Below are positions 7,523 to 45,708 of a stretch of DNA of 64,000 bases, in pieces (positions within the stretch are counted from its first letter, which is position 1; each line of letters opens with the position of its first letter). The stretch is taken from contig JAQURD010000002.1 of the NCBI GenBank assembly GCA_028749115.1, positions 145,402-209,401 of the forward strand, written 5' to 3'. The notes beneath the pieces were generated by a model. That model searched no databases. It was not told the origin of the DNA and was given only the letters and a program-made list of their open reading frames with translations. The stretch comes from Acidobacteriota bacterium (lineage in GTDB: Bacteria > Acidobacteriota > Aminicenantia > Aminicenantales > Saccharicenantaceae). A program made the position numbers and the translations under genes.

Positions 7523-7598
7523 TGGTGGAGCTGACCGGGCTCGAACCGGCGACCCCGTGACTGCCAGTCACGTACTCTCCCAACTGAGCTACAGCCCC
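7523..7598 (-). tRNA. tRNA-Ala (anticodon GGC)
   Basis: Reverse complement is GGGGCTGTAGCTCAGTTGGGAGAGTACGTGACTGGCAGTCACGGGGTCGCCGGTTCGAGCCCGGTCAGCTCCACCA (76 nt); cloverleaf folds, G3:U70 Ala identity pair, anticodon loop CTGGCAG, encoded CCA. Confidence 0.9.
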
Positions 7599-7689: not shown

Positions 7690-8302
7690 TTTCCTTTTCT
7701 GCCTATGTATTTTGTGAATTACTGCCAAGAGTGGCGGTAAGGCGTTGACCTGCCTCCCGATTTCCTCATCGACCGTAATAGCCAGGACAGATTTAGCAAG
7801 ATAGTAGGGTTAGAAACGGGCTGAGCAATTTTGGACAAAACCTATTTGGTGTCCTCACTTAAAATCTATAACTATGCTGATCTCTACCGATCTAAGGAGA
7901 TTTAGGCAGAGTTGATTTGTTGTTTGATGAGAAAATCTCAACGAAAAATATTTTGCCGGCCAGCCGCTCTAATAAATATCTGAGCTGATAAAACGACCGG
8001 ATACACTCAGAACCAGGGAGGCATGAACCACAGGTAGTGGCAGGTTGTCTATACATAGCAACATCTATCTTACCTCAAATATCACCAATGTGCCTGACCC
8101 AGCATACCGATCCTGTGATCTAACCAGAATCGGTATTTAAGTTGACAAAAAAACTACTAGATTTAAGATATATTATCTCAAGATTTTTTGTGGTCTCAGT
8201 GGTCACCTTGACTGATACTGGTCGTAACAAAAGAATATTGAATATTAACCACGCCACTATTCATTTAATAAAATCAAAAATCATTCCTTAGAGAGGAGGA
8301 CT

Positions 8303-9640
8303 ATGAATAAACATCTTAAAAAAATCAGTCCGGCATTCAGTAGACCTGTGATCTTGGTTTTTTTATTTATGGTTATGGTGATTCCTTTAGCCAGTTCAGG
8401 CCGGGCCGGCAGCCAGGCAGTCAAACCAGCCTATGCCCTGGTCAACTGCCGGATATTCCCGGTGGCCCAGCCGGTTATAAAAAAAGGAACAATCGTTGTC
8501 CGCGATGGTTTGATTGAAGCTGTTGGGCCGACCGCCAGCATTCAAATTCCAGATGACGCCGAAATTATCGAGGCCAGCGGCTTAACCGCTTATCCTGGTT
8601 TGATTTCTGCTCACACCAACCTGTTCTTTGAAACAAAAGAACAGGCCCAACCAGCCACACCTGAAGATTATTTAGCTGCTTACAGCCAGCCGGCAGAACC
8701 AAAGGAATTTCCCTGGCTTCAAATCATAGAAAAACTTAAACCGAAAAAGCAGACCGTTGAAGCCTATCATCGAACCGGCGTCACCACAGTAGTCGTTGCC
8801 CCCAATGAGGGGATTTTCCAGGGACAGAGTGTTGTTCTCAATCTAAACGGCGACCAGATTAACGAGATGGTCCTTCTCCAGCCCTGGGCACTTAACATCA
8901 ACTTTACCACCGAGAGAGGAGTTTATCCTTCGAGCCCCATGGGCACTTTAGCCTTCCTCCGGCAGAAATTTTATGATACCCAGCATTACAGTCTTCATCT
9001 TCAAAAATACCTCCAATCACCGCTATTTTTAAAAAGACCCGTATATGACCCTTTTCTGGAAGCGCTTCTGCCGTTTGTCATTGACAAAAAACCAATTGTT
9101 TTTGAGTGCCATAATCTCGAGGAAATAAAACGCGCCCTGAAACTCATTAAAGAATTTCAATTAAATGCCGTCCTCTCCGGTTGCAACGAAGCCTGGCGGG
9201 TTAGCGAGGATCTTAAGTCAGCCGCTAATATTCCTCTGCTGGTCACCCTTGATTTTCGACCCCCGACCAGCAGCCATTATGCTCAGGAAGGACAGACTGC
9301 TAAGGAGAAGGCAGAAAAAGAAATTTATCCGGCTAACGCTTCACACCTCTTCCAGGAAAAAATTAATTTCTCACTGACCAGCTTCGGTCTGAATGAATCA
9401 AATTTTATAAAAAATCTCAGATTGGCCATTCAAGTGGGCCTGCCGGCTGACCAGGCTTTGCGGTCTTTGACCATTGAGCCGGCTCGCACTCTTGGCCTGG
9501 AGAAACAACTGGGTTCTCTCGAACCGGGCAAAATTGCCAACCTCATCCTGACCAGAGGAGATCTTTTCGATGAAAAAGCACAGGTGGTCAAAGTCATGGT
9601 TGATGGAACCTTATTCACTTATGAGGAGAAAGGCCAATGA
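8303..9640 (+). CDS. secreted amidohydrolase-superfamily protein (COG1228-like), HxH metal site degenerate
   Basis: Signal peptide; amidohydrolase fold; the strand-1 motif reads PGLISAHTNL instead of DxHxH; stop overlaps the next start (ATGA). Confidence 0.75.
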   Translation: MNKHLKKISPAFSRPVILVFLFMVMVIPLASSGRAGSQAVKPAYALVNCRIFPVAQPVIKKGTIVVRDGLIEAVGPTASIQIPDDAEIIEASGLTAYPGLISAHTNLFFETKEQAQPATPEDYLAAYSQPAEPKEFPWLQIIEKLKPKKQTVEAYHRTGVTTVVVAPNEGIFQGQSVVLNLNGDQINEMVLLQPWALNINFTTERGVYPSSPMGTLAFLRQKFYDTQHYSLHLQKYLQSPLFLKRPVYDPFLEALLPFVIDKKPIVFECHNLEEIKRALKLIKEFQLNAVLSGCNEAWRVSEDLKSAANIPLLVTLDFRPPTSSHYAQEGQTAKEKAEKEIYPANASHLFQEKINFSLTSFGLNESNFIKNLRLAIQVGLPADQALRSLTIEPARTLGLEKQLGSLEPGKIANLILTRGDLFDEKAQVVKVMVDGTLFTYEEKGQ

Positions 9641-10950
9641 GAAAAAAAATAAAGAAAACCGGCTTGCTTATATCTTTTCTAATTCTTTTTCTGTCCTCAG
9701 CCACCTGGCTCTTAGCCAGCGGCAATTTGCTGATTAAAAACGCCACGATTTTGACTGTAACCGGCGGTGTTATCCCCCGCGGTGATGTTCTGGTCATCAA
9801 TGGTTTAATAGAGCAAGTCGGCCAGAACTTAACTGCTCCAGCCGACGTCAGAATTATTGACGCGGCCGGCAAATACTTGATGCCGGGCATCATTGATACC
9901 CATACCCACATCGCTCTCTCTGGCACCAACGAGGGGACGGACGCAGTCACACCAGAAGTTAATATGGCCGAGGTGATTAATGCTGATGATACTTCCATCC
10001 TGACTGCTCTGTCCGGTGGTGTGACCATGGTTCATACCATGCACGGCAGCGCTAATGTCATTGGAGGAACCAACGTTGTTCTGAAGCTTAAATGGGGCCA
10101 ACCTTCTGAGCAGCTCGTTGTCAAAGAAGCTTATCCCACTCTTAAATTTGCTCTGGGTGAAAATGTCAAGCAATCTAATTGGCCTCTTCTCCCCGGGCGA
10201 CCTCAGCGTTATCCAGCCACCCGCCTGGGTGCCAATGCTCTTATCAGAAGCGAATTAATAAAGGCGAAAGATTATATGGCTGCCTGGGATCGCTATGAGC
10301 AGCTTAAAAAATCCGAAAATCCGCCGGCTGACCTCTTGCCTCCAAGAAAAGACCTGAGACTGGAGACACTGGCCGGCCTTCTTCGCGGCCAGCTCATCGC
10401 CCGCTGTCATGCCTATGTCGCCACAGAAATGATCGAGTTTCTAAACCTCTCCAAAGAATTTGGCTTCAAAATAGGGGCTTTTGAACATGCCTGGGAAGCC
10501 TACAAGATAGCTGACGAGCTAAAAGCCGCCGGCGTCGGGATATCAGTTTTTGCTGATTCCTGGGCTTATAAAATGGAAGCAGCAGAAGGCATCGCCTATA
10601 ACGCTGCTTACTGCACCAAAAAAGGTATTCTGGTCTCGATTAATTCCGATAGCGGCGAGCGGATAAGAAGGCTATTTAATGAAGCCGGGAAAACGGTGAA
10701 GTATGGATTAACCCAGGACGAAGCCTTGAGGCTTATTACCATTAATGCTGCTAAACAACTGGGCGTTGACCATCTCGTCGGCAGCATTGAAGCTGGCAAA
10801 CAGGCTGACCTGGCTCTTTTCAGCCGGCATCCAATGAGTGCTTACACCCGTTGTGAGATGACGATTATTGAGGGCGAGGTTTACTTCGACCGGGAGGCAC
10901 TTCTCAAAGAAAGAGCTGCCGCTTCAGCTAAAAAAGGAGGCTTATCATGA
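9637..10950 (+). CDS. secreted amidohydrolase (COG1228-like dipeptidase/prolidase-type), intact metal site
   Basis: Signal peptide; PGIIDTHTHIALSG canonical HxH; 4-nt overlaps with both neighbours. Confidence 0.8.
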   Translation: MRKKIKKTGLLISFLILFLSSATWLLASGNLLIKNATILTVTGGVIPRGDVLVINGLIEQVGQNLTAPADVRIIDAAGKYLMPGIIDTHTHIALSGTNEGTDAVTPEVNMAEVINADDTSILTALSGGVTMVHTMHGSANVIGGTNVVLKLKWGQPSEQLVVKEAYPTLKFALGENVKQSNWPLLPGRPQRYPATRLGANALIRSELIKAKDYMAAWDRYEQLKKSENPPADLLPPRKDLRLETLAGLLRGQLIARCHAYVATEMIEFLNLSKEFGFKIGAFEHAWEAYKIADELKAAGVGISVFADSWAYKMEAAEGIAYNAAYCTKKGILVSINSDSGERIRRLFNEAGKTVKYGLTQDEALRLITINAAKQLGVDHLVGSIEAGKQADLALFSRHPMSAYTRCEMTIIEGEVYFDREALLKERAAASAKKGGLS

Positions 10951-12320
10951 GGCTAATGAGCATGGCTCAAACCGGTCGCCAATTAAAAGATAGAAAGAAC
11001 AGCAATCTGCTTCTGGCCCTGGCTGTCTTACTGAGTGTTATTCTCATCATTCCGCCATTTTCACTGGCCCAAACAGCCGCAGCAGCCGAAAACGGCTCAG
11101 AAATTATAGCTATTGTCGGTGCCAGAATTGTTCCCGTCACCGGCCCGGTTATTGACTCTGGCTCCATCCTGATCAAAGATGGCCGGATTGCTGGTCTCGG
11201 AACCAGCATTTCCATCCCGGCCGGAGCCAGGGTTATCGAGGCTAAAGGCCTCATTGCATATCCGGGAATGATTGACAGTTATTCGTGGCTCGGCCTGGAA
11301 GAAATCAGCGGAGTTCGGGCCACAGTCGATAATCGCGAAACTGGCCGGATTAATCCCCAGGTTAAAGCCATTGAAGCTCTCCATTATGATTCCATGCATA
11401 TCCCGATTGCCCGGGCCAATGGTATTGTGGCGGCAGTAGTTGCCCCTTCCGGTGGCCTTATCTCTGGACAGAGTACTCTGGTAAAATTAGATGGCTGGAC
11501 CAACCGGGAAATGGTTATCAAAGAATCACTGGCCATGGTGATCGAACTCCCAGCTCTCAGGAGAAGCCGCGGAGAGTTTTCTGGTCTCAGCCGTCAGCAG
11601 CCTCAGATCTCTACCGAGAAAGTCCTTGATGAACTGCGGCAAATTTTCGAGAAAACCAGGATGTATGAGAAAAGAAAAGAAGCAGCCCAGAAAAGCATCC
11701 TTCTGCCACCGCCAGATTTTGATGAGGCCAGTTACTTTCTCCTGCCCGTGGTTAAAGGTGAATTGCCGGTCATTTTCTCAGTTCATGCTGATAAAGATAT
11801 CCTCCAGACCATTAAATTTGTACAGGAAGAAAAGATAAGGGCTATTTTTTACGGAGTTGAACAGGGCTTTAAAGTTGCCAGGGAAATCAAGCAAGCCGGC
11901 CTTCCCTGTATTATTGGTTCTCTTTACAGCCTGCCGCCTGTCGGGGAAGATGGCTATGATGCCCTTTTCTTAAATCCGGTCATACTCAACGAGGCTGGCG
12001 TTAAAATTGCTTTTTCCTCCTCAAGTGCCAGCGCTGCTAAAGACCTCCCCTATCATGCTGCCAAAGCGGCAGCCTTTGGGCTCAAACCAGAAGAAGCCCT
12101 CAAAGCTGTGACCATTTATCCAGCAGAAATCTTTGGTGTGGATAAATTGATGGGCAGTCTCAAGCCAGGCAAACTGGCTAATATAGTTCTGACCGACGGT
12201 GATCTGCTTGAGCTTGGAACAAAAATTCAAAAAGTTTTTATCGAAGGTAAAGAGGTTTCACTGGAAAACCGTTATACTGTGCTTCTGGAAAAATTTGAGC
12301 AGAGAGATAAAAGAGAATAA
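10947..12320 (+). CDS. secreted amidohydrolase-superfamily paralog, HxH metal site degenerate
   Basis: Signal/TM N-terminus; motif reads PGMIDSYSWLGL (no HxH); translationally coupled to the upstream gene. Confidence 0.75.
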   Translation: MRLMSMAQTGRQLKDRKNSNLLLALAVLLSVILIIPPFSLAQTAAAAENGSEIIAIVGARIVPVTGPVIDSGSILIKDGRIAGLGTSISIPAGARVIEAKGLIAYPGMIDSYSWLGLEEISGVRATVDNRETGRINPQVKAIEALHYDSMHIPIARANGIVAAVVAPSGGLISGQSTLVKLDGWTNREMVIKESLAMVIELPALRRSRGEFSGLSRQQPQISTEKVLDELRQIFEKTRMYEKRKEAAQKSILLPPPDFDEASYFLLPVVKGELPVIFSVHADKDILQTIKFVQEEKIRAIFYGVEQGFKVAREIKQAGLPCIIGSLYSLPPVGEDGYDALFLNPVILNEAGVKIAFSSSSASAAKDLPYHAAKAAAFGLKPEEALKAVTIYPAEIFGVDKLMGSLKPGKLANIVLTDGDLLELGTKIQKVFIEGKEVSLENRYTVLLEKFEQRDKRE

Positions 12321-12396: not shown

Positions 12397-13092
12397 TCAA
12401 ATAGAGGTCAGAATAACGGCAATTATTCCTGTCAGAAAGACACCATCAAAAGTCCCTGCCCCTCCGATAGAGGCCACCGGGGCTCCCAGTTCAGGTATTT
12501 TTTTAAGATTCATAAAATCAGCTCCAATCAGTGTTCCCAGCGTCCCTGAAACATAAGCTATAACTGAAGCAGAATGTATACCATCAGGCGAGATAAGTGA
12601 AACGAGAAAAGCCACTAAGGCTGCCACCAGCGGCGGGAAAAGGGCTGGAGTAGCTATACCAAGGCCTCTAACCGGGCGGGCAACTCTGTTGACGAGAAAG
12701 GCAACTATCACCATGCTTAAAACAAACTCCCAGAAAAGCACTCCCCAGCGGAAAACCAGGTAAAGGCTTATCAGTGAGGGAATAACCGCACCACCCACAT
12801 TGATGGCCAGAACAGTCGTGTCACTTGAAGCAGCCACCGGCATCTGAAACTTCCAGCCGTAGAAATTTACTACCTGTCGCTCCAATACTGACCCGGAGTG
12901 CAGCTTTTTTATAGGGATATTAATGCCGCTGCCAATTAAAGTCAGAAGAAGGAGGGCAAAAACTGTGTCAGGCGGGATGCCCAGCCTCTGGAAGGCAAAA
13001 GAGATAATTCCCAGCTTTAGAAAAAAGAAAAGCCCACCAAGAAGAATAAAATAGCCAATCAGGAAAAAAAGAAGCACTGGCAAAAAGAACAT
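12397..13092 (-). CDS. integral membrane protein (possibly DUF1614-like)
   Basis: About 6 predicted TM helices; no recognisable catalytic motif. Confidence 0.4.
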   Translation of the reverse strand: MFFLPVLLFFLIGYFILLGGLFFFLKLGIISFAFQRLGIPPDTVFALLLLTLIGSGINIPIKKLHSGSVLERQVVNFYGWKFQMPVAASSDTTVLAINVGGAVIPSLISLYLVFRWGVLFWEFVLSMVIVAFLVNRVARPVRGLGIATPALFPPLVAALVAFLVSLISPDGIHSASVIAYVSGTLGTLIGADFMNLKKIPELGAPVASIGGAGTFDGVFLTGIIAVILTSI

Positions 13093-13461
13093 TGGCTTTT
13101 TCTCCTTACAGTCTATTTATTTCATCTTAATAATACAATGATAAGGGGCTAATGGAAAGAAAACAAATCGCTGTTTTAAGATTAAGGCTAAATTTATTTG
13201 CCCCTTAGCTGACCGGTGCCGGCAAAAATATCATTGGGCCTACCTGCCCTATCTGCCTCAACAGTGATAATCAGATAGCAATAGGGCAAAAATAGAGATT
13301 GACTTTGCCGTTCATTTTTGTTATAGGAGTTGCATCCTTCAAAGGGGAAGGTTAAGCTATTAGAAGCAAAAAAGGTTCTTTATGCTTTTTCAGGGCTCCA
13401 CCGCCCGAAGTGAGGCTAATTGCTATTTAATCTAGGTTTGACAATGCCAAAGGAGGCAAAA

Positions 13462-15201
13462 ATGAACAAAATGAAGAAACTTTATTCAGCGAGGTTTTAT
13501 GTCATCTGTCTTGGGCTGATTATGCTCTTTATCTTTATGGGCCATTCACAATTAATTCAGTCAAGACAACTGCAAAAAATTCCACTGGATAAAATTGCTT
13601 TAGCGCAGCCCAAAATTATTATGGAAAAAACACCACTGGAATCTCCGAAAGGAATGAGGATTTTTGAGACAAAGGTCCTATCTGTGCGTACCGATCTTAT
13701 CCAAAAATTTATTGCAGAAAAAAGTCTTATGAAGACACCTTTAATCATGAAAAATTTGCCTCAGCAGGAAGAAATCTACCAGGAATCAGAAAAAAAATTC
13801 ACCAGAATACTGACCAACACACAGCGAGGGCACATGATCGTGCTCCCTCATCTCGAAAAAATAGCCATGACCAAAGCTCAGCTTTTGAGGCACGACATGG
13901 CCATGAATAAAGCTATGGAACAGGTTAACCTCATGCAGCTTATCCCCAGAGACGAAAGTAAAGTCACGCCAAAGCAAGTTATCACCTTAACCAGAGCTCA
14001 AGTCAAGCAGGGCGAGCCGGCCGTAGTAAGCGATATCCTCCAAACTGTTTTATTCCAGAGAACCCTTGATGATAAACCTGTGGTAGGCAAGGGGTCTCAA
14101 CTTTTTGTTGAACTTGGGAATGAGGGCAAGTTAGAGGGCTACAGCCGAACCTGGAATGAGGTCATACCAAGCAACCTTGTGCCTGAATTCAGAACAGATC
14201 AAGAGATTTATGACGATATCGAAAAAACTTTGACGACTCAAATCAAAGGGAATGTAACTGTGCAGGTCAGAAAACCCAGACTCATCTATTTTGGAGATGA
14301 CAGAAAATTCGTCCAGCCTGCCTATTTCTTCACGGCTGAAATCTCTTCTCCTGAGGCCCTGGGAAAAGCCTATTATGCAGGAATTGTTACAGCTTTGAAA
14401 AATCCTCCCGAACCGGTGCTCCTGCCTCAAGAAGAAAAGATGCGGGCTTTGCCTCTTCAGGTTTCTCCCCTGCCGAAGGGCAAGGCCAGCGGGCCTTTTA
14501 TTCCCCAGGATGACCCGAGTGTAGGCCGTTATGTCGTCCGCAATGATAGCAATGATTGGGTTGATGACGCTAATGACTTTCGTAATGGTCTGTTGCAAGG
14601 CCACAGCAGCAGCAGTCCTGCCATTAGCTTTGGCGATTACTACTGGGATGAGCCCTGGCTCTGGACAACTGATGAAAATTCCTATGTTGATAAATGGCAC
14701 ATTGTTCTTATGGAGGGACATGGAGCGAACTGGCTTTTTACGACTCGAAGCAATTGTTGTGACGTCGTTAACCTGAACGCTGCTAGCCAACCAGGATATG
14801 GAAACCGGGCTGGCGATAGCATGAGATTCCTTATCCTTAAAGGGTGTTCTATCATTCCCGCTCCTCCTGATAGAGCCAATTGGCCAGACCCGTGGTGGAG
14901 AATCTTTAAGGGACTTCGCCAGGCAGTGGGATTTCGCACATCTATGTACATTAACGATAACATTTCTAAACACTTTGGCAAGCATCTTGCCCAGAACTGC
15001 CGGGTCCTTGATTCCTGGTTTCATGCAACCAATGATTGTTCAAGCTATAGCTGGGAACGTTTCTGGGGAAGCTGGGGTGATGAAGTCTATGGATATGGTG
15101 CGGTAGTCATGATCCCGGGACATGAAGGAGACGGCATTTATTCCACAGCAGCCCTGCCAGCCGCAACTTCAACAGGATTGACCATCTGGTGGCAGCACTG
15201 A
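13462..15201 (+). CDS. secreted/anchored protein with C-terminal caspase-like (clan CD) putative cysteine-peptidase domain
   Basis: RBS AGGAGG 6 nt before the ATG at 13462; N-terminal signal/anchor; C-terminal WHIVLMEGHG (His, nt 14719) ... RFLILKGCS (Cys, nt 14845), each preceded by a hydrophobic beta-strand about 42 aa apart, resembles a clan CD His/Cys dyad. Confidence 0.5.
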   Translation: MNKMKKLYSARFYVICLGLIMLFIFMGHSQLIQSRQLQKIPLDKIALAQPKIIMEKTPLESPKGMRIFETKVLSVRTDLIQKFIAEKSLMKTPLIMKNLPQQEEIYQESEKKFTRILTNTQRGHMIVLPHLEKIAMTKAQLLRHDMAMNKAMEQVNLMQLIPRDESKVTPKQVITLTRAQVKQGEPAVVSDILQTVLFQRTLDDKPVVGKGSQLFVELGNEGKLEGYSRTWNEVIPSNLVPEFRTDQEIYDDIEKTLTTQIKGNVTVQVRKPRLIYFGDDRKFVQPAYFFTAEISSPEALGKAYYAGIVTALKNPPEPVLLPQEEKMRALPLQVSPLPKGKASGPFIPQDDPSVGRYVVRNDSNDWVDDANDFRNGLLQGHSSSSPAISFGDYYWDEPWLWTTDENSYVDKWHIVLMEGHGANWLFTTRSNCCDVVNLNAASQPGYGNRAGDSMRFLILKGCSIIPAPPDRANWPDPWWRIFKGLRQAVGFRTSMYINDNISKHFGKHLAQNCRVLDSWFHATNDCSSYSWERFWGSWGDEVYGYGAVVMIPGHEGDGIYSTAALPAATSTGLTIWWQH

Positions 15202-19641: not shown

Positions 19642-21981
19642 ATGAATCCTAAAAATTATAAGAAACCAGACTTTAGCTTGAAAGAAATCAGGACTATGGC
19701 GGCTAAGGCTTTTGTCCTCGCACTTAAGGAAATCAGACCTCTACCCGGCGACCGTTCCCAGAATTTTCTGATAACAGACCGTTCAGGCCTGAAATATGTT
19801 TTAAAAATCTCATCTTCATTTGACCACCTGGAGGAACTGGATTTTGAAAATCAGGTCGTCCTGAAGCTGAGCCAGGAGCTTTCTGATTACCATTTTCCGC
19901 TGCCGCAACCTGATATTAATGGCCAGCTAATAAGCTGCTATGAGCGTGGCAATAAGGTCTTCTATCTCCGGCTTTTTGATTACATGGAAGGGCCGAGCCT
20001 GGCCGATTTGCAGTCTGTGCCGTTATCTCTCTGGTCAGAAATTGGCCGTCTGCTGGCTCGAATAGACCTCGTCCTTAAGGATTTTTACCACGCCGGAAGC
20101 AGACGCGAACTGCCCTGGGATGTGAAAAATGTCCTATGGTCAAAAGATAGATTGAAATATGTAACTGACCCGGTCAAAAGGAGGCAGCTTGATTATGTTC
20201 TTCTCCAGATTGAGACTTACCTCCTCCCTGTTTCGACCGGGCTTCGCCGCCAGGTCATTTACGGTGACGGCAATGAGCATAATTTCATTCTCCAGGTAAA
20301 AAAAGAAGCTTATCGCCTGACCGGCCTGATTGATTTTGGCGATATGAGCGACAGCTTTCTGGCCGCTGAGCCAGCTATTGCCCTGACCTATGCCATGATG
20401 AAGACCTCCGCGCCCGAAGAAGCCGTAAAAGTGCTTCTCTCTGCCTATCATAAAATCAACCCGCTGCAGCCGGCCGAACTCGATGTTCTTTATTACCTGA
20501 TTCTGTCGCGTCTTGTTATCAGCCTGACCATGGCTGCCTGGAGACGGCAGACTGAGCCGCAGAATGAGTATATGACGGTATCAGAAGAACCGGGCTGGAA
20601 ACTGCTTGATTCTCTGTTTACCTCCAACCCGGAAAAATGGCGAAGCCTTTTTTATAAAAGCTGTAAACTCGAGCTGTCTTCTCTCTGGCTCGAAAGCGAG
20701 AAACTCCTCGGATTCAGGAGTGAGCATATCTCTGAGGCCATGAGTCTGACCTACCGCCAGCCATTGCACATAACCAGGGGTGCCGGCCAGTATCTTTTTG
20801 ATGACCGCGGTGAATCCTATCTCGACTGTGTCAATAATGTTTGCCACCTGGGACACTGCCATCCGCGCGTAGCCCGGGCTGTCGCCCGCCAGATGGCCAT
20901 ACTCAACACCAATACCCGCTATCTTTACGACGTATTAGCTCTCTACGTGGAAAAACTTTTATCAAAGTTTCCGGCGAAGTTTCAGTACTGCTTTCTGGTT
21001 AACTCCGGCAGCGAAGCCAATGACCTGGCCTTACGTCTGGCCAGAAATTATACCAGGGCGACAGAGATTTTAGTCCTCGATAGAGCCTATCATGGAAATC
21101 TGAGTTCGCTCATTGATATCAGCCCTTATAAATTTGACGGGCCGGGAGGAAAGGGTGCTCCACCCTTCATTCATAAGCTGGCGACTCCTGATCCCTATCG
21201 GGGGCCGTATCGCGGTCGAACCGAGGCGACCAGCCTGAAATACACCGCCGACGCCAGGCAGGTCATTAATGATTTAAAAGCCGCCGGTAAAAAGCTTGTC
21301 GGTCTGATCGCCGAACCAATGATGGGCTGTGCGGGCCAGGTCATCTTTCCACCGCGTTACTTAAAGCATGCTTTTGATCTGGTTCACCGGGCCGGCGGAG
21401 TCTGCATTGCTGATGAAGTTCAGGTTGGCTTCGGACGTCCGGGGCGTTTCTTCTGGGGTTTTGAATCGCAGGAGGCTTCACCGGACATTGTCACGCTAGG
21501 AAAGCCCATCGGCAACGGCCATCCAATTGGGGCGGTCGTCACAACAGAAGAAATCGCCCGCTCGTTTGTCACCGGCATGGAATATTTCAACACTTTTGGC
21601 GGCAATCCGGTAAGCTGTGCTGCCGGTCTGGCTGTCCTCGAGGCGATCGAGGAGGAAAATCTCCAGGAAAATGCTGGCTCGGTTGGAGACTATTTTTTGA
21701 AAAGGCTCAATGAGCTGCAGTCAAAACATGAGTTAATCGGGGACGTCCGCGGGCTGGGATTATTCATAGGAGTTGAGCTGGTCAAAGACAGAGAAACCAG
21801 ACGGCCAGCGACTCGTGAGGCTGAACTCATCGCCGAGAAGATGAAAAGAAATAACATTCTGGTGACAACCGAAGGCCCTTACCACCAGGTGTTAAAGATC
21901 AAGCCCGCTATCATTTTCAACAAAGACAATGTTGATTTATTCGTCGAGACTCTTGATGAGATTCTGAAAGTTTTTGATTAG
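19642..21981 (+). CDS. fusion protein: APH-like kinase domain + class-III aminotransferase-like (AGXT2L/phospho-lyase-type) PLP domain
   Basis: N-terminal about 330 aa carries catalytic-loop GDGNEHN and IDFGDM (DFG-like); C-terminal about 440 aa carries [11 protein letters not shown] and the PLP Lys in TLGKPIG of class-III aminotransferases. Confidence 0.8.
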
Positions 21982-33004: not shown

Positions 33005-33697
33005 TCATATATCTAACAGATACCCGTTCTTTTTAAGCCAGTCTTTATGTTTTTCATAATCTGGCAGCATTAGCTTGATTTTTGCCCAAAACTCCTTAGT
33101 ATGGTTTTTCTCTACCAAGTGAATTAATTCATGCACTACTGCATAATCAATAACTCCCAATGGGGCCATGATAAGACGCCAAGAAAAATTTAAATTTCCA
33201 GAGGGAGAACAAGAAGCCAGCCTTTTTCTTGAATCAGTAATGTTTACCTTATTAAAACTTAATCTCCTTTTTTGGGCATACCACCTGACTCTTTCTGGTA
33301 TCTTCAAACGGGCTGCATCTTTGTACCAGTTAATGATCAATTCTCTTGCCTCCGGTAGCGCTTTGTTAGATATAAAAAAACCTCTGTCAAACTTAATCGG
33401 AAGGTCCTGCTTACCGACAACCTTAAGTTTGTAATAAGCTCCAAGATAAGGGAATCCTTCTCCGTTGACATATTCTTTTGCCCTGAATAATTGGCGCTCT
33501 TTAGCTAATTCATCACTTTTTTTATTAATCCAGGCACTATTTTTTGCCAAAATTTTCCTTATAGTCCCGTCGTCGGTATTGGCGGGAACACGAAAGATTA
33601 GCTTCCCGCCCGAGCCAATCTTCAAAGACATAGACTTTCTGTTAGTTCTTACAATTTCTATTTCAGGCATTCTTCTTTCCATATATATGATAGGCAA
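33005..33697 (-). CDS. DUF45/YgjP-like (M48/WLM-type) zinc metallopeptidase, hsdR-associated
   Basis: HExxH motif in VVHELIHLVEKNH; this family is typically encoded directly downstream of type I hsdR. Confidence 0.7.
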   Translation of the reverse strand: MPIIYMERRMPEIEIVRTNRKSMSLKIGSGGKLIFRVPANTDDGTIRKILAKNSAWINKKSDELAKERQLFRAKEYVNGEGFPYLGAYYKLKVVGKQDLPIKFDRGFFISNKALPEARELIINWYKDAARLKIPERVRWYAQKRRLSFNKVNITDSRKRLASCSPSGNLNFSWRLIMAPLGVIDYAVVHELIHLVEKNHTKEFWAKIKLMLPDYEKHKDWLKKNGYLLDI

Positions 33698-36600
33698 GCT
33701 CTAATAGTTTCTGAGCAATTTCATTCCTTTTGGTGTGGATCTTGCCTCCCCATCCCGGCTCGTTTCCTTCTGCACTTCCTGATCGTTCAAGATGCTTGGC
33801 CTTTAAATTCAGCAAATGCGATATTAGATATGATTTTAACCGTTTTTGTTTTGTATAATTTTCCCAAAAATCGACAGACCTTATTTCTTTTTTAACCATT
33901 TCAATAATATCCCTGGTTATATCTATAAGAAAACTCAAATCCTCTTGTGATAGTTGGTCTATGGAATCCTTCCCATATATTTCTTGCTTCAGGAGGCCAA
34001 AAAATGGCATCTCTTTTTTAGGATCAAAACCAAATGTTTGCTCGGCTTCCCTGCCCTTCTTTAGCTTATCCCTTATTATTTCCAGTCCAGCTGCCAGCTC
34101 CTCCCAATTATTTTTATATTGTTCTAAAATTGAGTTTAATTTATCAGAAAATCTTTGATAGAACTCCGGGTCTTCCTCGAAGTGCTTTTCTATATAGTCT
34201 TTAGTAGCAAATTCTAGTTCCAGTGCTCTAGCTTTTGCTGTCCTCGCCTTTACTTGTTTTATAAAAGCGTCATCAAGGAGAGGCAATGGGGCAACTTTTG
34301 GGTTCACTCCTTTGGAAATAAGAAATTCTTCCACTATCTCCCTTATCTTTTTGCTGGCATCCTTTAGGCTAAGCTTATCATCTCGAAATCTGTTGCGAGC
34401 TGATTCTTTTATGAACTCAATGATTTTTAAATCAGTAACATATTTTAAAGCCTGGGGATCCGGCAAGACCGCATCCATTAATTTTTCAAAATTCCTTACC
34501 AGAGATATAAATTCGTTTCTTGTCTCTTCATCTACCAACAAGTCAATACACTCTTCTAAATTGTTTCTCCAGTCACTTACTCCGTAACTTCCAAAAAAAC
34601 TTTCAATTTGATTGTGAACATATTCAAGCTGATCAAAACCTTTCGCCTTGTTTATGATAACTTGAGAAATTTCCTCTATATCTTCGTCAGCATAAATAGC
34701 CAGTGCTTCCTTCAAATGTTTAAGAACACCGACATAGTCAACTACAAAGCCGCAGCTCTTATTTTCATAGACCCTGTTGACCCTAGCTATTGCCTGAAGC
34801 AAATTGTGTTCTTTGATTACATTATCCAAATACATAACCTGCTCCAATGGCGCATCAAAGCCAGTAATCAACATGCTTTGGACGACAATTATCCCTGTAT
34901 CCCCATTTATCCCACCTTCTGCAGTCTTACCAAATGGCAATTTAAAGCTCTTAATTAAACGCTCATGAAGATTGGGGTCGGTATAATCATGGTATTCTGG
35001 TGGGTCGTTAGGGAGACCAGAAATTATGACAGCCACCTTAAGCCTTTCCAGCTGTGCTATGTCCATTCCCAGAGAGCTTTCCCGGCATAATTTCTCGATC
35101 TTTCCCCTTAGAGCTTCTTCTAAAGCTTGTTTATATCTGATAGCCGCAAGCCGTGATACAGCTACAACCTGGGCTTTAAATCCGTTTGGAAAAACATGCT
35201 CAACATAGTGATCGATCATGTCCCTGGCTTTATCTCTAATTACTTTCTGATCTTCAAGATAAGCCCTCCACGTATAGCGGCCTAAGAGTCTTTCTTTTTC
35301 ATCTGGACCGACCTGAGCAAAGACATCTTCAAATTTGGCATTAGCTGCCCCTTCATTTGTAAGCTCAGCAGAGTGGACTCTCCCCTCATAGACAATTTCA
35401 ACTGTCACCCCATCCTCAACCGATTGCTTAATCCCATAGCGGTCAATATAGTCGCCAAAAGTCATTTTAGTTTTTTCTATTGGCGTTCCGGTATAGGCGA
35501 TTCTTATGGCGTTGGGCAATGCCCTATTTAAATTGGCACCCAAAAGGCTATACTCAGTCCTGTGAGCTTCATCAATCATTATTAGGATATTCGATGAGAT
35601 ATTTAAAATGGGAAACTGAGTTTCTAAGTCTCTTTCCTGAACTTTGTGAATCATTCCCATAACTAAATCTGGTGTATTTGTCTTTAAAAGTTCCTTAAAT
35701 TGGCTAATGCTATTGGCGAGGTTGACCGTGAAGCCTACACTTTTTGAGGTCTCTTTCAGCTGTCTTTCCAGGTCTTTTCTATCAGTGATAAAAATAATCT
35801 TATACTTGGCCAGTTCCGGATCATGATACATGGCTCTTACAGTAAACATCATAGTCAGGGACTTTCCTGAGCCCTGGGTGTGCCAGATAATACCCCCCTT
35901 ATCCTTTGGATCGGTTTTTTCTTTAAGACGCTTTATAATTTTTTTGACAGCTCTAAACTGCTGGTACCTTGGTGTAAGCTTTATAATCTCGCCTTTGTGA
36001 TCTTCTCTGAAAATCGTGAAATTATAAAGGATGTCTAACAAGTTATCTTGGGAAAGCATACCCTGCACAAGCACTTGTTGACTGGTGAGATTTCCAGCGG
36101 CTCCAATATCCGAGAGGGCAAAAGGATAAGGGTCTTTCCATTCGACAAAATGCTCGTGCTCGCCAGTGATCGTGCTATATTTAGCTGTTTGATTAGATGT
36201 TGCAATCATAAAAAGGTTATACCAGAAGAGCTTTTCATTGCCTTCCTTTTCGCCCCTTTTATTGGCGTACCTCCAAAGTTGGGTAATTGCTTCAGAAACA
36301 GGATCGGCTATGGCCGGAGACTTACATTCAATAACGACCAGTGGCAATCCATTTACAAAAAGCACGATGTCCGGGATGATATGTTTTTCAGTACCTGGGA
36401 TATTAACCTTAAATTGTGAAATTGCCAGAAAAGAATTGTTCTCAGGTCTTTTAAAATCTATATACCTGACAGTAGGACTCTTTTCACCAGTCTTTCTGTT
36501 TTCTGAAACGGACATATTTTCTATTAAGAGGTCATGAATCTCTCTATTGGCCTCCAGGAGAGAATGTCCCTGAGGGATCGTAATTCGCCTAACAACCTGG

Positions 36601-36860
36601 GTTATCTGATCTTCTTCAATCCATGCGTTTATTCTTTTTAGAGACTTTTTTAGCTCGTCTTCGAGAATAATCTCTATGAATGCCTCCCGAAGTTTAACCA
36701 CCTCACCATATCTAGGTTCATTCTGGTCGTTAAACGATAATATCGGCCAGACCTGCTCAGGATCATCTTTATTTTGCCTATAAATTCCCCACCCGAGTCT
36801 CTGCAGCTGGGCTAAGAGCGCGTTTTCTACATAAAATTCTTCGTCTAATTTCTTATACAT
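33663..36860 (-). CDS. hsdR: type I restriction enzyme R subunit
   Basis: N-terminal PD-(D/E)xK (IPDIVLFVNGLPLVVIECKSP); SF2 helicase motifs GSGKSLTM (I) and DEAHR (II); 1065 aa. Confidence 0.9.
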   Translation of the reverse strand: MYKKLDEEFYVENALLAQLQRLGWGIYRQNKDDPEQVWPILSFNDQNEPRYGEVVKLREAFIEIILEDELKKSLKRINAWIEEDQITQVVRRITIPQGHSLLEANREIHDLLIENMSVSENRKTGEKSPTVRYIDFKRPENNSFLAISQFKVNIPGTEKHIIPDIVLFVNGLPLVVIECKSPAIADPVSEAITQLWRYANKRGEKEGNEKLFWYNLFMIATSNQTAKYSTITGEHEHFVEWKDPYPFALSDIGAAGNLTSQQVLVQGMLSQDNLLDILYNFTIFREDHKGEIIKLTPRYQQFRAVKKIIKRLKEKTDPKDKGGIIWHTQGSGKSLTMMFTVRAMYHDPELAKYKIIFITDRKDLERQLKETSKSVGFTVNLANSISQFKELLKTNTPDLVMGMIHKVQERDLETQFPILNISSNILIMIDEAHRTEYSLLGANLNRALPNAIRIAYTGTPIEKTKMTFGDYIDRYGIKQSVEDGVTVEIVYEGRVHSAELTNEGAANAKFEDVFAQVGPDEKERLLGRYTWRAYLEDQKVIRDKARDMIDHYVEHVFPNGFKAQVVAVSRLAAIRYKQALEEALRGKIEKLCRESSLGMDIAQLERLKVAVIISGLPNDPPEYHDYTDPNLHERLIKSFKLPFGKTAEGGINGDTGIIVVQSMLITGFDAPLEQVMYLDNVIKEHNLLQAIARVNRVYENKSCGFVVDYVGVLKHLKEALAIYADEDIEEISQVIINKAKGFDQLEYVHNQIESFFGSYGVSDWRNNLEECIDLLVDEETRNEFISLVRNFEKLMDAVLPDPQALKYVTDLKIIEFIKESARNRFRDDKLSLKDASKKIREIVEEFLISKGVNPKVAPLPLLDDAFIKQVKARTAKARALELEFATKDYIEKHFEEDPEFYQRFSDKLNSILEQYKNNWEELAAGLEIIRDKLKKGREAEQTFGFDPKKEMPFFGLLKQEIYGKDSIDQLSQEDLSFLIDITRDIIEMVKKEIRSVDFWENYTKQKRLKSYLISHLLNLKAKHLERSGSAEGNEPGWGGKIHTKRNEIAQKLLELAYHIYGKKNA

Positions 36861-36877
36861 TTTTCGTCATTTTTTTA

Positions 36878-39208
36878 TCATTTTAATTGAGCCTTTGGGG
36901 CATCATCGACAACTTCATCTAAAATTTCTTGGACTTTAGACAAAGCCTTTTTTGTAAGATTCTGCCCCCTTTTAATTAAAAAGCTATCTTTATCAGCTCT
37001 TATTTCTATTATCTCATTACCCCGTTTGATCTCAATATAGGGCTCCTCAAGGTCAGTGGAATATATATAATCAGCTCTGTCTTGAAGTCCCTCTCTCCCT
37101 TTTAAGTGACGATTAAATAGGTCGTATGTATATAGCTCAGCATGCCTGCCACTTAGTTTTTCTTTCATTAAGAGGTATATCTTAGGAAAGTTTTCATGGT
37201 TAAGTTCGTCTCTATCAGCTCTGATTTTCCTATTTTTACAATAGGCCAAATTGTTAGGATTTTTTATAAAATACTTACGCCAATCGTCTTCCCCAAACTT
37301 CTCGATTATTCTGTTCAGATCCTCCTCGATATTCTTAGAAGTTAGCTCATCCAAAAGATTTTTTAAATACTGACTTTTAATATCATCATTAAACACCTTC
37401 CTCCAGTTGTCCATCTTAGCTCTAAGACCTCCTTCAAAATTGCAAAAGGTATAGTTCATACCATCCTTGACCAGATAATTGCCTTTGGCCAATAATGCTC
37501 TCTCAAAAAGGTCATTTTTCCCGCGATCACCATTACTAAATAATTCATTATTACTAAATAATTCCTTCAGCCTTTCTCCATAATATCTGAATTTCTTTTG
37601 GTCATATCCCCCCTGTCGATCTTTGGAATATTCCAAGATAAAGCCGATCTGTCCGTTAAAATAGCTATGGGTTTCAACATCAACAATTAGTTCTTCCCAA
37701 TTCGGATCTTCCATAATTAACTTTACTTTTTTCTTTTCCTCATCTGTCTGTATCCCTAAAAAGAAGTCAACTTTGGAGTCACCGCTTAGGAGATATTCAT
37801 AAATGTCGTTTATATGATTACTAAGCTCTTTTAACGAGCGGATAGCCCTATAAAAATCCATAGGCTCATCGATTCTGGTATTGTTGATTAAATTCAGAGC
37901 TATTCTCGCCCACCTCTTGAACATCTCCTTATTATTCTCGTTTAAGGCATGATCCCTTATAAAATATTTATACAGTGCATAAAATCTGCACCTTTCCTGG
38001 TAATTGATGGTGCTCCCGCTGTCGTCACCCCTATGAGGTTTAAGAAAGTCTAAAAATATATTCTTAAATGGCTCAATTAGCCTTCGCAATACTTTATGTT
38101 TTCCAAATAAATTGCTAACACTTTCACTATAATGCGTTAAACAATCCAAGCATAAAACGATATTCCTTATATTTTCTTCTGTAAATGTAGAGACTTTTAG
38201 ATCAGACTGGCCATCTCTAGTTTTTTTTTCGTCATCCCACATTTTAAATATTTCATATGAGTCCATAATATCTTTTTCCTCTGATATAAGATTTTCATGA
38301 TGAGCCTCAACATTTAAAAGGAAGACCAGGTTTTCAAGAAAGCTGAAATACTTCTTGTCAACGAATTGCGGACTTATCTTCTGACTTTGCATTTTTTCTA
38401 TTTTCCAGAAAATTTCTAACCATTCATTATCAAATTTCTTTTTTTCATCATTAGTTAGATCTTTAGAAAATAACGCTTTAAAATGTTCCAAAAAAGTCAA
38501 TGGCTTCCCCCTGGCATTCATTTTGATATAAAGCTCGTCAGTAAGAGCAAACTCTTCAAGCGGAAGGAAGTAAAATTCAATCACTGATTGTCCGCCAATC
38601 AGCTTATCCAACAATTCATTTTCCTCTTTTCCAAAGTTTTCTTGAATGATATCCAACATATTTAGCATGTTTGAAACTGTTGGATCTCTCTCCCAAGACA
38701 GAAAGAACCATTTGCAATTTTTTATCGCCTTGCTTATCTCTTTTCCCTTTTCATACTGGACACCCTCGTTTATTAACTTTTTACAAAAATCCTGGGAACT
38801 TAATCTAGTCTCATAACTGAATCGTGATAGACGATCCTTTAGATCCTTATTAAGTCTGTCTTCTTTCAAGGCAAGATACCAATGAAGAAGCCAGAGAGTG
38901 GTGAGCCGCTGCTGGCCATCAATAGGTATCAGTTTTCCTTGATCTATTTTTCCATAAATAAAGTCTAAACTCAGCTTCTTGCCATTTTTGATGCTATCGT
39001 ATATGGCATTTATAAAAGCATCGGCAATTCTTCTCTCTAGAGGTCTCCCTTGGGCATAATCCCTTTGAATTATAGGGATTTCAATTTGATATTCAGCAAT
39101 TAAAGACCAAAAATTGGTTTTCATTTTGGCCCTCTCTATTAGATTCTTTGCCTTTTTCATCTTTAAAATATTCTTCCAATGTTTCGACCATTGACTCAAG
39201 ATAAGCAT
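36878..39208 (-). CDS. DUF262 (ParB-like/GmrS-type) domain protein, type IV-restriction-like
   Basis: IPIIQRDYAQG ... IDGQQRLTTLWLL DGQQR motif; likely true start is the Met at about 39124 (MKTNFWSL...); inserted between hsdS and hsdR. Confidence 0.75.
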   Translation of the reverse strand: MLILSQWSKHWKNILKMKKAKNLIERAKMKTNFWSLIAEYQIEIPIIQRDYAQGRPLERRIADAFINAIYDSIKNGKKLSLDFIYGKIDQGKLIPIDGQQRLTTLWLLHWYLALKEDRLNKDLKDRLSRFSYETRLSSQDFCKKLINEGVQYEKGKEISKAIKNCKWFFLSWERDPTVSNMLNMLDIIQENFGKEENELLDKLIGGQSVIEFYFLPLEEFALTDELYIKMNARGKPLTFLEHFKALFSKDLTNDEKKKFDNEWLEIFWKIEKMQSQKISPQFVDKKYFSFLENLVFLLNVEAHHENLISEEKDIMDSYEIFKMWDDEKKTRDGQSDLKVSTFTEENIRNIVLCLDCLTHYSESVSNLFGKHKVLRRLIEPFKNIFLDFLKPHRGDDSGSTINYQERCRFYALYKYFIRDHALNENNKEMFKRWARIALNLINNTRIDEPMDFYRAIRSLKELSNHINDIYEYLLSGDSKVDFFLGIQTDEEKKKVKLIMEDPNWEELIVDVETHSYFNGQIGFILEYSKDRQGGYDQKKFRYYGERLKELFSNNELFSNGDRGKNDLFERALLAKGNYLVKDGMNYTFCNFEGGLRAKMDNWRKVFNDDIKSQYLKNLLDELTSKNIEEDLNRIIEKFGEDDWRKYFIKNPNNLAYCKNRKIRADRDELNHENFPKIYLLMKEKLSGRHAELYTYDLFNRHLKGREGLQDRADYIYSTDLEEPYIEIKRGNEIIEIRADKDSFLIKRGQNLTKKALSKVQEILDEVVDDAPKAQLK

Positions 39209-40958
39209 CCCTATCTTGTTTTTCCCATTTAACTGTTTGTTCGGAATTCTTAGAAAAATATTTTAAAAAGACATTTTTCGTGCCTATGGGAACAAAGCCA
39301 CCCTTTTTATCTATTTCTATAATCTTTTCCCTTTTGATGGGGAATATATTGTTACTTAGAGCAGAGTTATCATGACTAGAGAGGAGAGTCAAATTATCTA
39401 TTGAATGAATATTGATTTCATCAGAAAATAATTTGTATATTGTATCTTGTATTTTTTTAAATGTATTTTCGTCTATTATTTTCTCCTTTAATAAATCTTC
39501 AATATCTTTGGCCGCTACCAGATATCCATTGTTTTCTAAATATTTCAGTTGATCAGCAAGAAGAAGTTTTCTTTGATTGCTATTTTTTATAGTTTCTGAA
39601 TTTTGGGCATGAATGTGCTCTAGAGTCCATTTTTGTTCGACAAACTTATTAAAAGAGAACCTTGTTTCGTGGCTATCTTTTGCGATTAATATGTTAAATA
39701 ATAAAAGAACTTTCCTTATATCTTTATAATCTCTATCATATTCAAGCTCTCTTAAATAGTTACCGACACTATTTTTGTCCTGGAATTGGATACTTTTCTT
39801 AATTTCGTTTCTTATCCAGTCTTTAAATTCAACTTTGTCATAACTTTGACAGCATTTTATAATTTCCTTAATTTGAGTATCCGAATGGATTAGATAACCA
39901 ATTAGATGATAATATTCATCGTTATAAAACCATTCATCAAACATTCTATGATATGTCTTAACTTCATCCCATAGGCTATCCCGGGCTAAACCTTCTGATG
40001 CAATAATTTGGCCGTTAATAACGTCTATCTTTTTGGATATAAGTTCATTGAATATATAGAACGTATAATAAGGATCGATTAACTTATTTACTTCAATATC
40101 CACCAGCTTTTCATATTTATTAGCAATTAGGTCAAAGATAAATTCAATCCTAGTAGGAATATCATGTTTTTGCCTGTTTAGGAAATACCAAAATTTATCT
40201 GCCCGTAACGCACTTTCTATACTTTCCCATTCGTAGGCTCTTTTGAATTGGTGGTTCTCTCTATCTTCCTCAGATTCTTTAATAAATAAGATTGCCTTTA
40301 TTAGTTCGGCACTGGTCAGTGGTATTTTTCCCATATTTATTCTAGTGAATATTTCTGCTGGATCTTTGACCGCTTCATCATCTTCCGCCTCATACCAAAT
40401 AAATCGCACATTATTCGCTAAATCCCGGCCATTTTTTCTGTCAACCTTTATAAGAGCATTTGCAAAATCAGCCTTTGTAATCCTTTTTTGTTTTATATTT
40501 TCTTCAAACCAGTTCTTAATACATAAAAAGGCTTTGCTGATATAATAATAATCTATATTGTCTTTATCTTCTGTTATGATATCTGAGATCTTTCTTAAGT
40601 AATCTTCACTGCCCGGCCTGGTTTCATATTTTAATTGATAAATATTTTCAATATAGTAATCCTCCTTCAATCTATCCTTTAGAAAGGTTAAAACCAGAAA
40701 TATCGTTGTTAGCCTCTGCTGCCCGTCTATAACCTCATATTCATTCTGATTATTATTGTGCTTTTTGACGACGAGAGGCTGAAGGCAATAAAATTCTCCG
40801 GGTTTCTTATTATATCTACTTTGAAATTCTAAAATATCGTTTAATAGGTCAAGCACCTGCCTTTCATCCCATCTGTAACCCCGCTGATAAGACCCAATGA
40901 TGAATGTCTTGTTGAACAATTCGGGAATTGATATTAATTTAATTTGCGTCTGTGTCAT
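39093..40958 (-). CDS. GmrSD-like fused DUF262-DUF1524 type IV restriction endonuclease
   Basis: N-terminal SYQRGYRWDE ... IDGQQRLTTIFLVL (DUF262); C-terminal WTLEHIHAQN ... NLTLLSSHDNSALSN (DUF1524 His-Me finger-like). Confidence 0.75.
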   Translation of the reverse strand: MTQTQIKLISIPELFNKTFIIGSYQRGYRWDERQVLDLLNDILEFQSRYNKKPGEFYCLQPLVVKKHNNNQNEYEVIDGQQRLTTIFLVLTFLKDRLKEDYYIENIYQLKYETRPGSEDYLRKISDIITEDKDNIDYYYISKAFLCIKNWFEENIKQKRITKADFANALIKVDRKNGRDLANNVRFIWYEAEDDEAVKDPAEIFTRINMGKIPLTSAELIKAILFIKESEEDRENHQFKRAYEWESIESALRADKFWYFLNRQKHDIPTRIEFIFDLIANKYEKLVDIEVNKLIDPYYTFYIFNELISKKIDVINGQIIASEGLARDSLWDEVKTYHRMFDEWFYNDEYYHLIGYLIHSDTQIKEIIKCCQSYDKVEFKDWIRNEIKKSIQFQDKNSVGNYLRELEYDRDYKDIRKVLLLFNILIAKDSHETRFSFNKFVEQKWTLEHIHAQNSETIKNSNQRKLLLADQLKYLENNGYLVAAKDIEDLLKEKIIDENTFKKIQDTIYKLFSDEINIHSIDNLTLLSSHDNSALSNNIFPIKREKIIEIDKKGGFVPIGTKNVFLKYFSKNSEQTVKWEKQDRDAYLESMVETLEEYFKDEKGKESNREGQNENQFLVFNC

Positions 40959-40979
40959 TAATTTCTCCTTATTTGCTCT

Positions 40980-42176: not shown

Positions 42177-42187
42177 CCCTCCCCACG

Positions 42188-44740: not shown

Positions 44741-44795
44741 AGGTCTCTTCTCCCTCTATATTTATGCATTTATATTTATGATTATATAATAATCG

Positions 44796-44990
44796 CTATT
44801 TAATCTCTCCATCTGATGAAAACATATTTTTCTTAACTAAAAATTCAGATAAAGACTCAGGAGATTCCAAAAGAATCGGCTCTCCAAATTCTGTATTCTT
44901 GCTATGATAAATCGGAAAAAGCACTTTGATACCTTTATTGCATTCAATGTTTTCTACCACTTGGGATTGATGGCCTTTTAGAGTGTCCAT
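44796..44990 (-). CDS. small hypothetical protein (64 aa) between the upstream module and hsdM
   Basis: ORF co-oriented and tightly spaced with its neighbours; no motif. Confidence 0.3.
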   Translation of the reverse strand: MDTLKGHQSQVVENIECNKGIKVLFPIYHSKNTEFGEPILLESPESLSEFLVKKNMFSSDGEIK

Positions 44991-45029
44991 ATTTTGCCCC
45001 TTCGCAAAAAGATATTACCGTTATCCTAT

Positions 45030-45695: not shown

Positions 45696-45708
45696 GTGTC
45701 ATAGCTTC

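Follow-up and report, generated by a model that had tools for sequence, protein, structure and literature searches.

For the evolution of enzyme function, the amidohydrolase superfamily serves as a textbook case, yet its exported members have been treated as single-gene homo-oligomers. The characterized enzymes of COG1228, a group in which several peptidases are exported, include the Arg/Lys carboxypeptidase Cc2672 (PDB 3MTW), the prolidase Sgx9260b (3FEQ/3N2C), and Sgx9260c (3MKV), and to our knowledge these three are single-gene enzymes without pseudoenzyme partners. Here we describe a trio of adjoining plus-strand genes, termed A, B, and C, in a 64,000-nucleotide stretch of contig JAQURD010000002.1 from an Acidobacteriota bacterium of Aminicenantes/Saccharicenans type (the whole stretch is referred to as the window). 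Gene A (8303 to 9640), which encodes the N-terminal member of the trio, and gene C (10947 to 12320) specify proteins of 445 amino acids (aa) and 457 aa, each a predicted amidohydrolase-fold pseudoenzyme with a signal-like N terminus. Gene B, between them (9637 to 10950), encodes a predicted catalytic amidohydrolase of 437 aa. The trio proteins share with the COG1228 peptidases, which are their best near neighbors among the NCBIfam models, the superfamily and the layout of a beta-sandwich plus barrel, but the kinship is remote, with matches confined to the N- and C-terminal segments (E values of 1e-5 to 1e-9) and Foldseek template-modeling (TM) scores of ~0.55 to 0.6.

We consider it likely that A, B, and C form one exported hydrolase unit in which B provides the sole active site and A and C are permanent noncatalytic partners. 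An earlier note on this DNA had read the locus as one catalytic subunit with two pseudoenzyme partners, perhaps hetero-oligomeric, and the analysis supports this reading of the three roles. Physical association of the three proteins we infer from the fixed gene order, the recurrent fusions, the loss of signal segments from internal fusion domains, and the predicted template-modeling score (pTM) of 0.84 to 0.89 for models of natural fusions.

All three proteins exceeded the Pfam gathering scores of Amidohydro_1 and Amidohydro_3 (48 to 68 bits against 25 and 29.7), with A matching Amidohydro_1 at an E value of 8e-15. Their pairwise identities of 28% (A-C), 26% (A-B), and 25% (B-C), at E values of 1e-47 to 7e-25, are those of clear but old paralogs, as judged by sequence. 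The best solved structure for each was PDB 3OOQ, which was matched over nearly the full length by B (2.3e-57), C (7e-34), and A (2.4e-27) and by the B-family profile at 6.7e-87; the full-length similarity extended to the family-specific insertion that follows strand 4 and precedes strand 5, where a P-x-T-R-M-G motif is shared. None of the NCBIfam models reached its cutoff for A, B, or C, and the equivalog for Xaa-Pro dipeptidase/Arg carboxypeptidase (NF051886 and relatives) gave 51 to 62 bits against a cutoff of 500. The trio proteins are accordingly placed, on these profile matches, in the 3OOQ-like subgroup of the amidohydrolase superfamily and outside every characterized equivalog. The earlier note had called them COG1228-type, a label echoed by the JGI ortholog name "imidazolonepropionase-like amidohydrolase"; however, it is 3OOQ that matches at full length, and the characterized COG1228 enzymes are only distantly related. 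The alignment to Cc2672 and Sgx9260 which the note had proposed as a check was run and proved uninformative, as only terminal beta-sandwich segments aligned, and the ligands were mapped otherwise. The sole sign found of earlier notice was the automatic name of one ortholog, [quoted passage not shown]

To map the ligands, hidden Markov models (HMMs) of A, B, and C were built from close homologs (Aminicenantes sequences), and the three families were cross-mapped with hhalign. Domains were drawn from the best 150 representatives of the 50%-identity clusters obtained in an exhaustive HMMER search with B, and ligand equivalence was taken from family invariants, profile-profile alignment, and strand positions in an AlphaFold2 model of a natural A-B fusion (P0361). 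The superfamily scheme, which B is expected to follow in the manner of the COG1228 peptidases, comprises an HxH motif on strand 1, a Lys on strand 4, a His on each of strands 5 and 6, and an Asp on strand 8. In B, the corresponding residues H89, H91, K170, H258, H284, and D338, plus D87, were invariant (100%) across 150 diverse B domains. His89-Thr90-His91 is encoded at 9901 to 9909 of the plus strand, as are all codons given here, and the two histidines are equivalent to H535 and H537 of the P0361 model, where the strand spans residues 531 to 536. Lys170 (10144 to 10146) lies in the motif LKFALGEN and corresponds to K616 in the P0361 strand 614 to 618; presumably it is the bridging, carbamylated Lys, the carbamylation being taken from knowledge of the superfamily. 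His258 (10408 to 10410) is equivalent to H700, which closes the strand 696 to 700. His284 (10486 to 10488) lies on strand 6, and Asp338 (10648 to 10650) would be the strand-8 ligand or general base. The ligand equivalents thus sit at beta-strand ends in the fusion model, as expected of an amidohydrolase barrel. Approximately 35 more positions were at least 95% conserved in B, including N98, E99, H136, S138, N140, E175, N176, R196, and Y213 as well as Y260, E264, E287, D307, W309, K312, E314, and D391. On the strength of established superfamily knowledge, B is predicted to be a binuclear, Lys-bridged metalloenzyme.

The ligand set of a catalytically competent binuclear enzyme was found in B but not in A or C. 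At the positions of B H89, H91, K170, H258, H284, and D338, A has H104, N106, N200, E268, G293, and F361, and C has Y112, W114, a gap, S278, G303, and S359, respectively. The six columns were variable among 116 A-type and 60 C-type domains, save for the position of the strand-6 His, which holds Gly in 75% of the A domains and 87% of the C domains. The claim that only the middle gene keeps the metal site is thereby borne out, and the strand-1 motifs quoted for it were exact (98-PGLISAHTNL-107 in A, 83-PGIIDTHTHI-92 in B, and 106-PGMIDSYSWL-115 in C). A complete alternative metal set in the flanking paralogs, which the earlier note had named as evidence against itself, was also looked for, and no conserved set was found in these 116 A and 60 C domains. 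The conserved residues of A and C were mostly Gly and Pro, with a few class-specific polar residues; those specific to A were Y208, P209, M213, G214, R220, Q221, D225, and E284, and those specific to C were E119, D128, S149, R156, D259, and D338.

These class-specific residues bear on the possibility that the operon encodes three independent enzymes, with A and C active by a noncanonical mechanism on other substrates or at successive steps of a pathway. Near-invariant polar residues away from the canonical site (R220, Q221, D225, and E284 in A; E119, D128, S149, and R156 in C) would suit such enzymes, paralogous hydrolases are often clustered, and peptidases lie near the trio in some loci. However, there was no conserved cluster of His, Asp, Glu, or Cys at the barrel-end positions equivalent to the active site, and A and C have only a few, scattered conserved residues as against the ~40 invariant positions of B. 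Recurrent fusion in a fixed order and the predicted packing of the fused domains, both described below, would also be unexpected for mere coregulation, and we regard independent activity of A and C as quite improbable.

The distribution of the trio was examined in a one-genome-per-species pattern scan with a diverse B alignment, in which the best 80 loci of at least 600 matches were listed and every open reading frame (ORF) in them was classified with the A, B, and C HMMs. A and C accompanied B in 76 of these 80 B-anchored loci, and the order A-B-C on one strand was seen in 74; the flanking paralogs were not found as independent enzymes, the other outcome which the earlier note had held to count against it. 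Separate genes in the order A, B, C were present in 53 loci (49 clean and 4 split by frameshifts or carrying an extra fragment), an A-B fusion followed by C in 14, and A followed by a B-C fusion in 5. A single A-B-C chain was found in one locus (Planctomycetaceae), where it is split near its end by a frame change. The order was permuted, with a B-C fusion followed by A, in two loci, namely, L042 (18 to 4342; Vicinamibacterales), which begins near a contig end such that an upstream A is possible there, and L075 (5533 to 9992; Acidobacteriota). Four loci were cut by a contig end. The genome labels covered more than eight phyla and included Acidobacteriota (several classes), Gemmatimonadota, Armatimonadota, Planctomycetota, Zixibacteria, Bacteroidota (Algoriphagus, Dyadobacter, Litoribacter, Saprospiraceae, and others), Balneola, and the gammaproteobacterium Gallaecimonas. 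The B search returned 1,224 protein clusters at an E value of ≤1e-30. Junctions were tight, with a 4-nucleotide overlap at 15 A/B and 25 B/C junctions and other measured gaps of 0 to 124 nucleotides.

Compared with their counterparts in other phyla, the window proteins had median identities of 47% for B, 37.5% for C, and 31% for A, and B, the slowest evolving of the three by this comparison, fits the pattern expected for one catalytic and two structural subunits. A and C stay full length over phylum-level divergence, each with near-invariant polar residues of its own, and such conservation indicates that both are under constraint, having lost the catalytic residues yet been maintained by selection. 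That A and C are merely functionless, decaying duplicates of B would account for the loss of catalytic residues, but it is scarcely credible given intact full-length frames, orthologs in more than eight phyla, class-specific near-invariant residues, retained signal peptides, and maintained fusions.

The N termini were assessed by eye and by hydrophobicity. In A, B, and C, a basic n-region is followed by a hydrophobic stretch of 15 to 18 residues, resembling a Sec signal and agreeing with the signal peptides that had been claimed for all three. As read from the sequence, the signal-like N terminus of A spans approximately residues 1 to 33 (8303 to 8401, plus strand) and consists of MNKHLKKISPAFSR, PVILVFLFMVMVIPLA, and SSG in succession, while that of C spans approximately residues 1 to 43 (10947 to 11075, plus strand) and ends with PPFSLA immediately before QT. 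Among separately encoded proteins, a hydrophobic N terminus was present in 80% of A orthologs and in 84 to 93% of B or C orthologs (93% for C). In fusions, by contrast, none of the 25 internal B and C domains had a hydrophobic signal segment, including none of the nine internal C domains. Since the internal domains lack the segment, the fusions are real, evolved events. An assembly artifact was considered as their origin and rejected, because the internal signal peptides are gone and the linkers are long (~20 to 170 residues).

AlphaFold2 models were obtained for two natural fusions. The A-B fusion P0361 (875 aa) had a mean predicted local distance difference test (pLDDT) score of 89.0 and a pTM of 0.89, with a pLDDT of <50 in the linker at residues 436 to 462; the B-C fusion P0385 (871 aa) had a mean pLDDT of 82.6 and a pTM of 0.84, with a pLDDT of <50 in the linker at 425 to 463. 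The low-confidence linkers are 27 to 39 residues long. In both models, the dead domain, A or C, is predicted to fold as a complete amidohydrolase-like domain. By the definition of pTM, values this high for two equal domains would imply a confidently predicted interface. A Foldseek search of the PDB with the model of a fusion homolog gave 3OOQ as the only close match (TM score of 0.91, 36% identity), and no solved two-domain relative was found in that search.

A two-gene form of the system was seen in Sphingomonadales. In the Qipengyuania citrea plasmid L083 (3815 to 6600), a B-like gene that keeps HxH overlaps by 4 nucleotides the C-like gene behind it, which lacks the motif; the product of the B-like gene carries a signal of the lipoprotein type, and a peptide transporter gene of the major facilitator superfamily lies just upstream. 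In Novosphingobium resinovorum (NZ_CP017076.1, 858472 to 860969), adjacent B-like and C-like matches occur in the same order. These pairs have no A gene, and identity to the B protein of the window is only ~33 to 35%. The absence of A from this form, together with the separate export of each protein, would suit A and C being accessory factors, such as periplasmic folding, metal-insertion, or stabilizing chaperones, or transient substrate-capture proteins which hand a ligand to B, and the loss of ligands and the tight co-occurrence fit such roles equally well. Covalent fusion to B in many lineages, even of all three in one chain, speaks instead for a permanent 1:1(:1) association, and AlphaFold2 predicts fixed packing rather than beads on a string. 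Accessory roles for A and C therefore seem unlikely, although less so than independent enzymatic activity.

Several points weigh against the proposal of a permanent A-B-C unit. Since the sphingomonads manage with B and C, A is dispensable in some lineages, and a Fimbriimonadales metagenome-assembled genome (MAG) has an A-B fusion of 1100 aa (L049, 4288 to 7590) for which a C-type gene was not found within the 6-kb flank. Mutual binding of A, B, and C is deduced rather than drawn from experiment or multimer prediction, and pTM is an indirect proxy for interdomain packing. The best 150 cluster representatives comprised ~76 A-B, 43 A-B-C (1266 to 1589 aa), 22 B-C, and 9 lone B proteins, but these fusion frequencies are inflated because ranking by summed score favors multidomain proteins. 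The large surveys were anchored on B, with the A- and C-anchored search covering a small plasmid collection; the HMMs that classified the domains derive from Aminicenantes sequences; and the taxonomic labels of MAGs may be wrong through binning errors.

If A, B, and C do form one unit, it would be a metal-dependent amidohydrolase that is exported, probably to the periplasm. Catalysis would fall to the B protomer alone, through a predicted binuclear site of the six ligands named above, while A and C would be full-length, folded paralogs without a metal site, packed against B as permanent partners. The three genes would be cotranscribed and translationally coupled, and since each product has its own Sec-type signal, assembly would follow export; in other lineages, the unit would be built as one, two, or three polypeptides. 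A and C may scaffold and stabilize B, or they may shape the substrate site and access to it. More tentatively, and with somewhat less confidence than doubt, we suggest that the trio is an ancient, obligate heteromer of one active and two dead protomers which arose by duplication and degeneration from a homo-oligomeric 3OOQ-like ancestor and came to be a major hydrolase exported by bacteria of soil and sediment (Acidobacteriota, Gemmatimonadota, Bacteroidota, and others), its dead protomers building or gating the single site and setting specificity.

The relationships among the families bear on this history. A and C share states which are absent from B, namely, Arg at position 156 of each, Pro where B has W309, and Gly where B has H284, and profile comparison gave a score of ~585 for A-C versus 437 to 472 for the pairs with B. 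The shared derived states and the closer A-C profiles suggest that A and C descend from a common noncatalytic ancestor. In the plasmid collection, lone B-like genes, at one place per record, were found in Bacillus, Cytobacillus, Acetoanaerobium, Nonomuraea, Monoglobus, and Halogeometricum, and the A and C queries of this collection gave no place without an adjacent or coincident B-like gene. As a hypothesis, the simplest history would run from a homomeric singleton, through B with one dead partner, to the A-B-C trio. A single gene for a homo-oligomeric 3OOQ-like enzyme probably duplicated, with one lineage (B) staying catalytic and a second losing the metal site and duplicating again to give A and C.

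In the window, the A/B junction is ATGA at 9637 to 9640 and the B/C junction is ATGA at 10947 to 10950, each start overlapping the preceding stop by 4 nucleotides, just as the earlier note had stated. GGAG-type Shine-Dalgarno sequences lie 8 to 11 nucleotides 5' of the B and C starts, within the 3' end of the preceding gene, and gene A has GGAGG 5 nucleotides 5' of its ATG. The NCBI annotation of A (P0121, 423 aa) begins at Met23 (8369 rather than 8303, 22 codons late); by choosing this Met over the ATG preceded by GGAGG, it loses the signal peptide. The longer form is supported by A orthologs of 444 to 449 aa, which align over 100% of the 445-aa protein. A 900-bp spacer lies 5' of gene A, bounded by a DJ-1/PfpI-like gene (identified by eye), and contains a tRNA-Ala(ggc) gene on the minus strand (7523 to 7598). 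A candidate sigma-70-like promoter, TTGACA-16-TAAGAT (8142 to 8169, plus strand; 10 of 12 consensus positions), precedes gene A, although it is a consensus match only, as promoter-like sites in the region were no more numerous than in shuffled sequence. Downstream, the next gene (12397 to 13092) is on the minus strand, opposite to the trio. Given the promoter-like spacer upstream and the opposite-strand gene downstream, the trio would form a self-contained operon.

The neighborhood of the trio was compared by clustering 426 flanking ORFs from 81 loci (counting L001, an Aminicenantes contig outside the 80, and the window). No conserved neighbor gene was found beside the trio, the largest cluster (PAS histidine kinases) occurring in 8 of the 81 loci; since no further gene is conserved, the A-B-C trio itself appears to be the unit. 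Peptidases of the S9, M28, NlpC/P60, and M20 types and a TonB-dependent receptor occurred near the trio sporadically, and with such sporadic neighbors the gene context yields no firm clue to the substrate. Our best guess is a peptide or an amino-acid-derived amide, for which there are three weak hints, namely, the distant relation to COG1228 peptidases, the peptidases found now and then beside the trio, and the peptide transporter beside the sphingomonad pair. In L001, a Peptidase_M20 gene lies directly 3' of the trio and a gene with Peptidase_S9_N (prolyl-oligopeptidase N-terminal) lies nearby (10649 to 12184 and 12588 to 14417).

Some loci showed irregular gene structures. In L001, A is followed by B running into C via an apparent frameshift and then by the rest of C. 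In a Hymenobacter volaticus plasmid (L082, 4281 to 8481), the trio appears broken into five short annotated coding sequences, reflecting pseudogenization or sequencing errors. The A-type proteins P0153 to P0234 (~535 to 577 aa) and the A ORFs of most non-Aminicenantes loci are ~100 residues longer than A of the window, and in these longer proteins an insertion near model positions 330 to 360 interrupts the HMM match.

Elsewhere in the window, a 593-aa protein with a hydrophobic N terminus and a DUF6345 match is encoded 3' of the trio, past the opposite-strand gene (13420 to 15201, plus strand); no link between a DUF6345 protein and the trio was seen in the other loci. A 779-aa fusion of an APH-type phosphotransferase and a class-III aminotransferase is encoded at 19642 to 21981 (plus strand). 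A low-GC block on the minus strand (33663 to 52457; 32 to 40% versus 45 to 50% elsewhere) resembles a defense island. Within it lie a type I restriction-modification system (HsdR, 33663 to 36860; HsdS, 40980 to 42176; HsdM, 42188 to 44740), two GmrSD_N/DUF262 genes between hsdR and hsdS (36878 to 39208 and 39093 to 40958), and a gene for a 1281-aa protein with a weak match to nSTAND NTPases (48612 to 52457), all on the minus strand.

Of the known proteins, 3OOQ, an uncharacterized structural-genomics entry titled "amidohydrolase from Thermotoga maritima MSB8," is the nearest to the trio. Unlike the trio, it has no signal peptide and no dead partners, forming a homo-oligomer of dihedral symmetry with 10 chains in the entry, and it lacks several residues that are invariant in B, e.g., H136 and Y260; the sole mention of 3OOQ found in the literature was in a docking benchmark. 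A further group, the metal-dependent bile salt hydrolases reported in 2026, was considered and set aside, since its architecture is different, with one hydrolase domain and a C-terminal domain. The CRMP/DPYSL (dihydropyrimidinase-related) proteins have the amidohydrolase fold but have lost metal ligands, and their paralogs assemble into hetero-oligomers. They were among the remote PDB matches, but they differ from the trio in being eukaryotic cytosolic signaling or scaffold proteins of another subfamily with no active paralog in the assembly. The searchable full-text literature yielded no conserved trio that, like this one, combines one live with two dead members of a single family and is exported and recurrently fused.

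In Pseudomonas aeruginosa, a dead pseudo-dihydroorotase is an obligate structural subunit of the active aspartate transcarbamoylase complex (PMC7053772). There, the dead protein partners an unrelated enzyme in the cytoplasm, whereas here two dead paralogs would partner an enzyme of their own family outside the cytoplasm. Dead amidohydrolase-fold subunits are already known, but in the two cases named here the partner of the dead protein is an unrelated enzyme or no enzyme. The trio is a widespread and apparently unstudied module in which one active protomer would be tied to two dead paralogs. If this is true, it would offer a clean natural case of the passage from a homomer to a heteromer with pseudoenzyme subunits, and it would correct the generic label "amidohydrolase family protein" on thousands of genes, of which two-thirds could not encode enzymes of the canonical type. 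The trio is also a target for substrate discovery in abundant, poorly understood phyla of soil and sediment.

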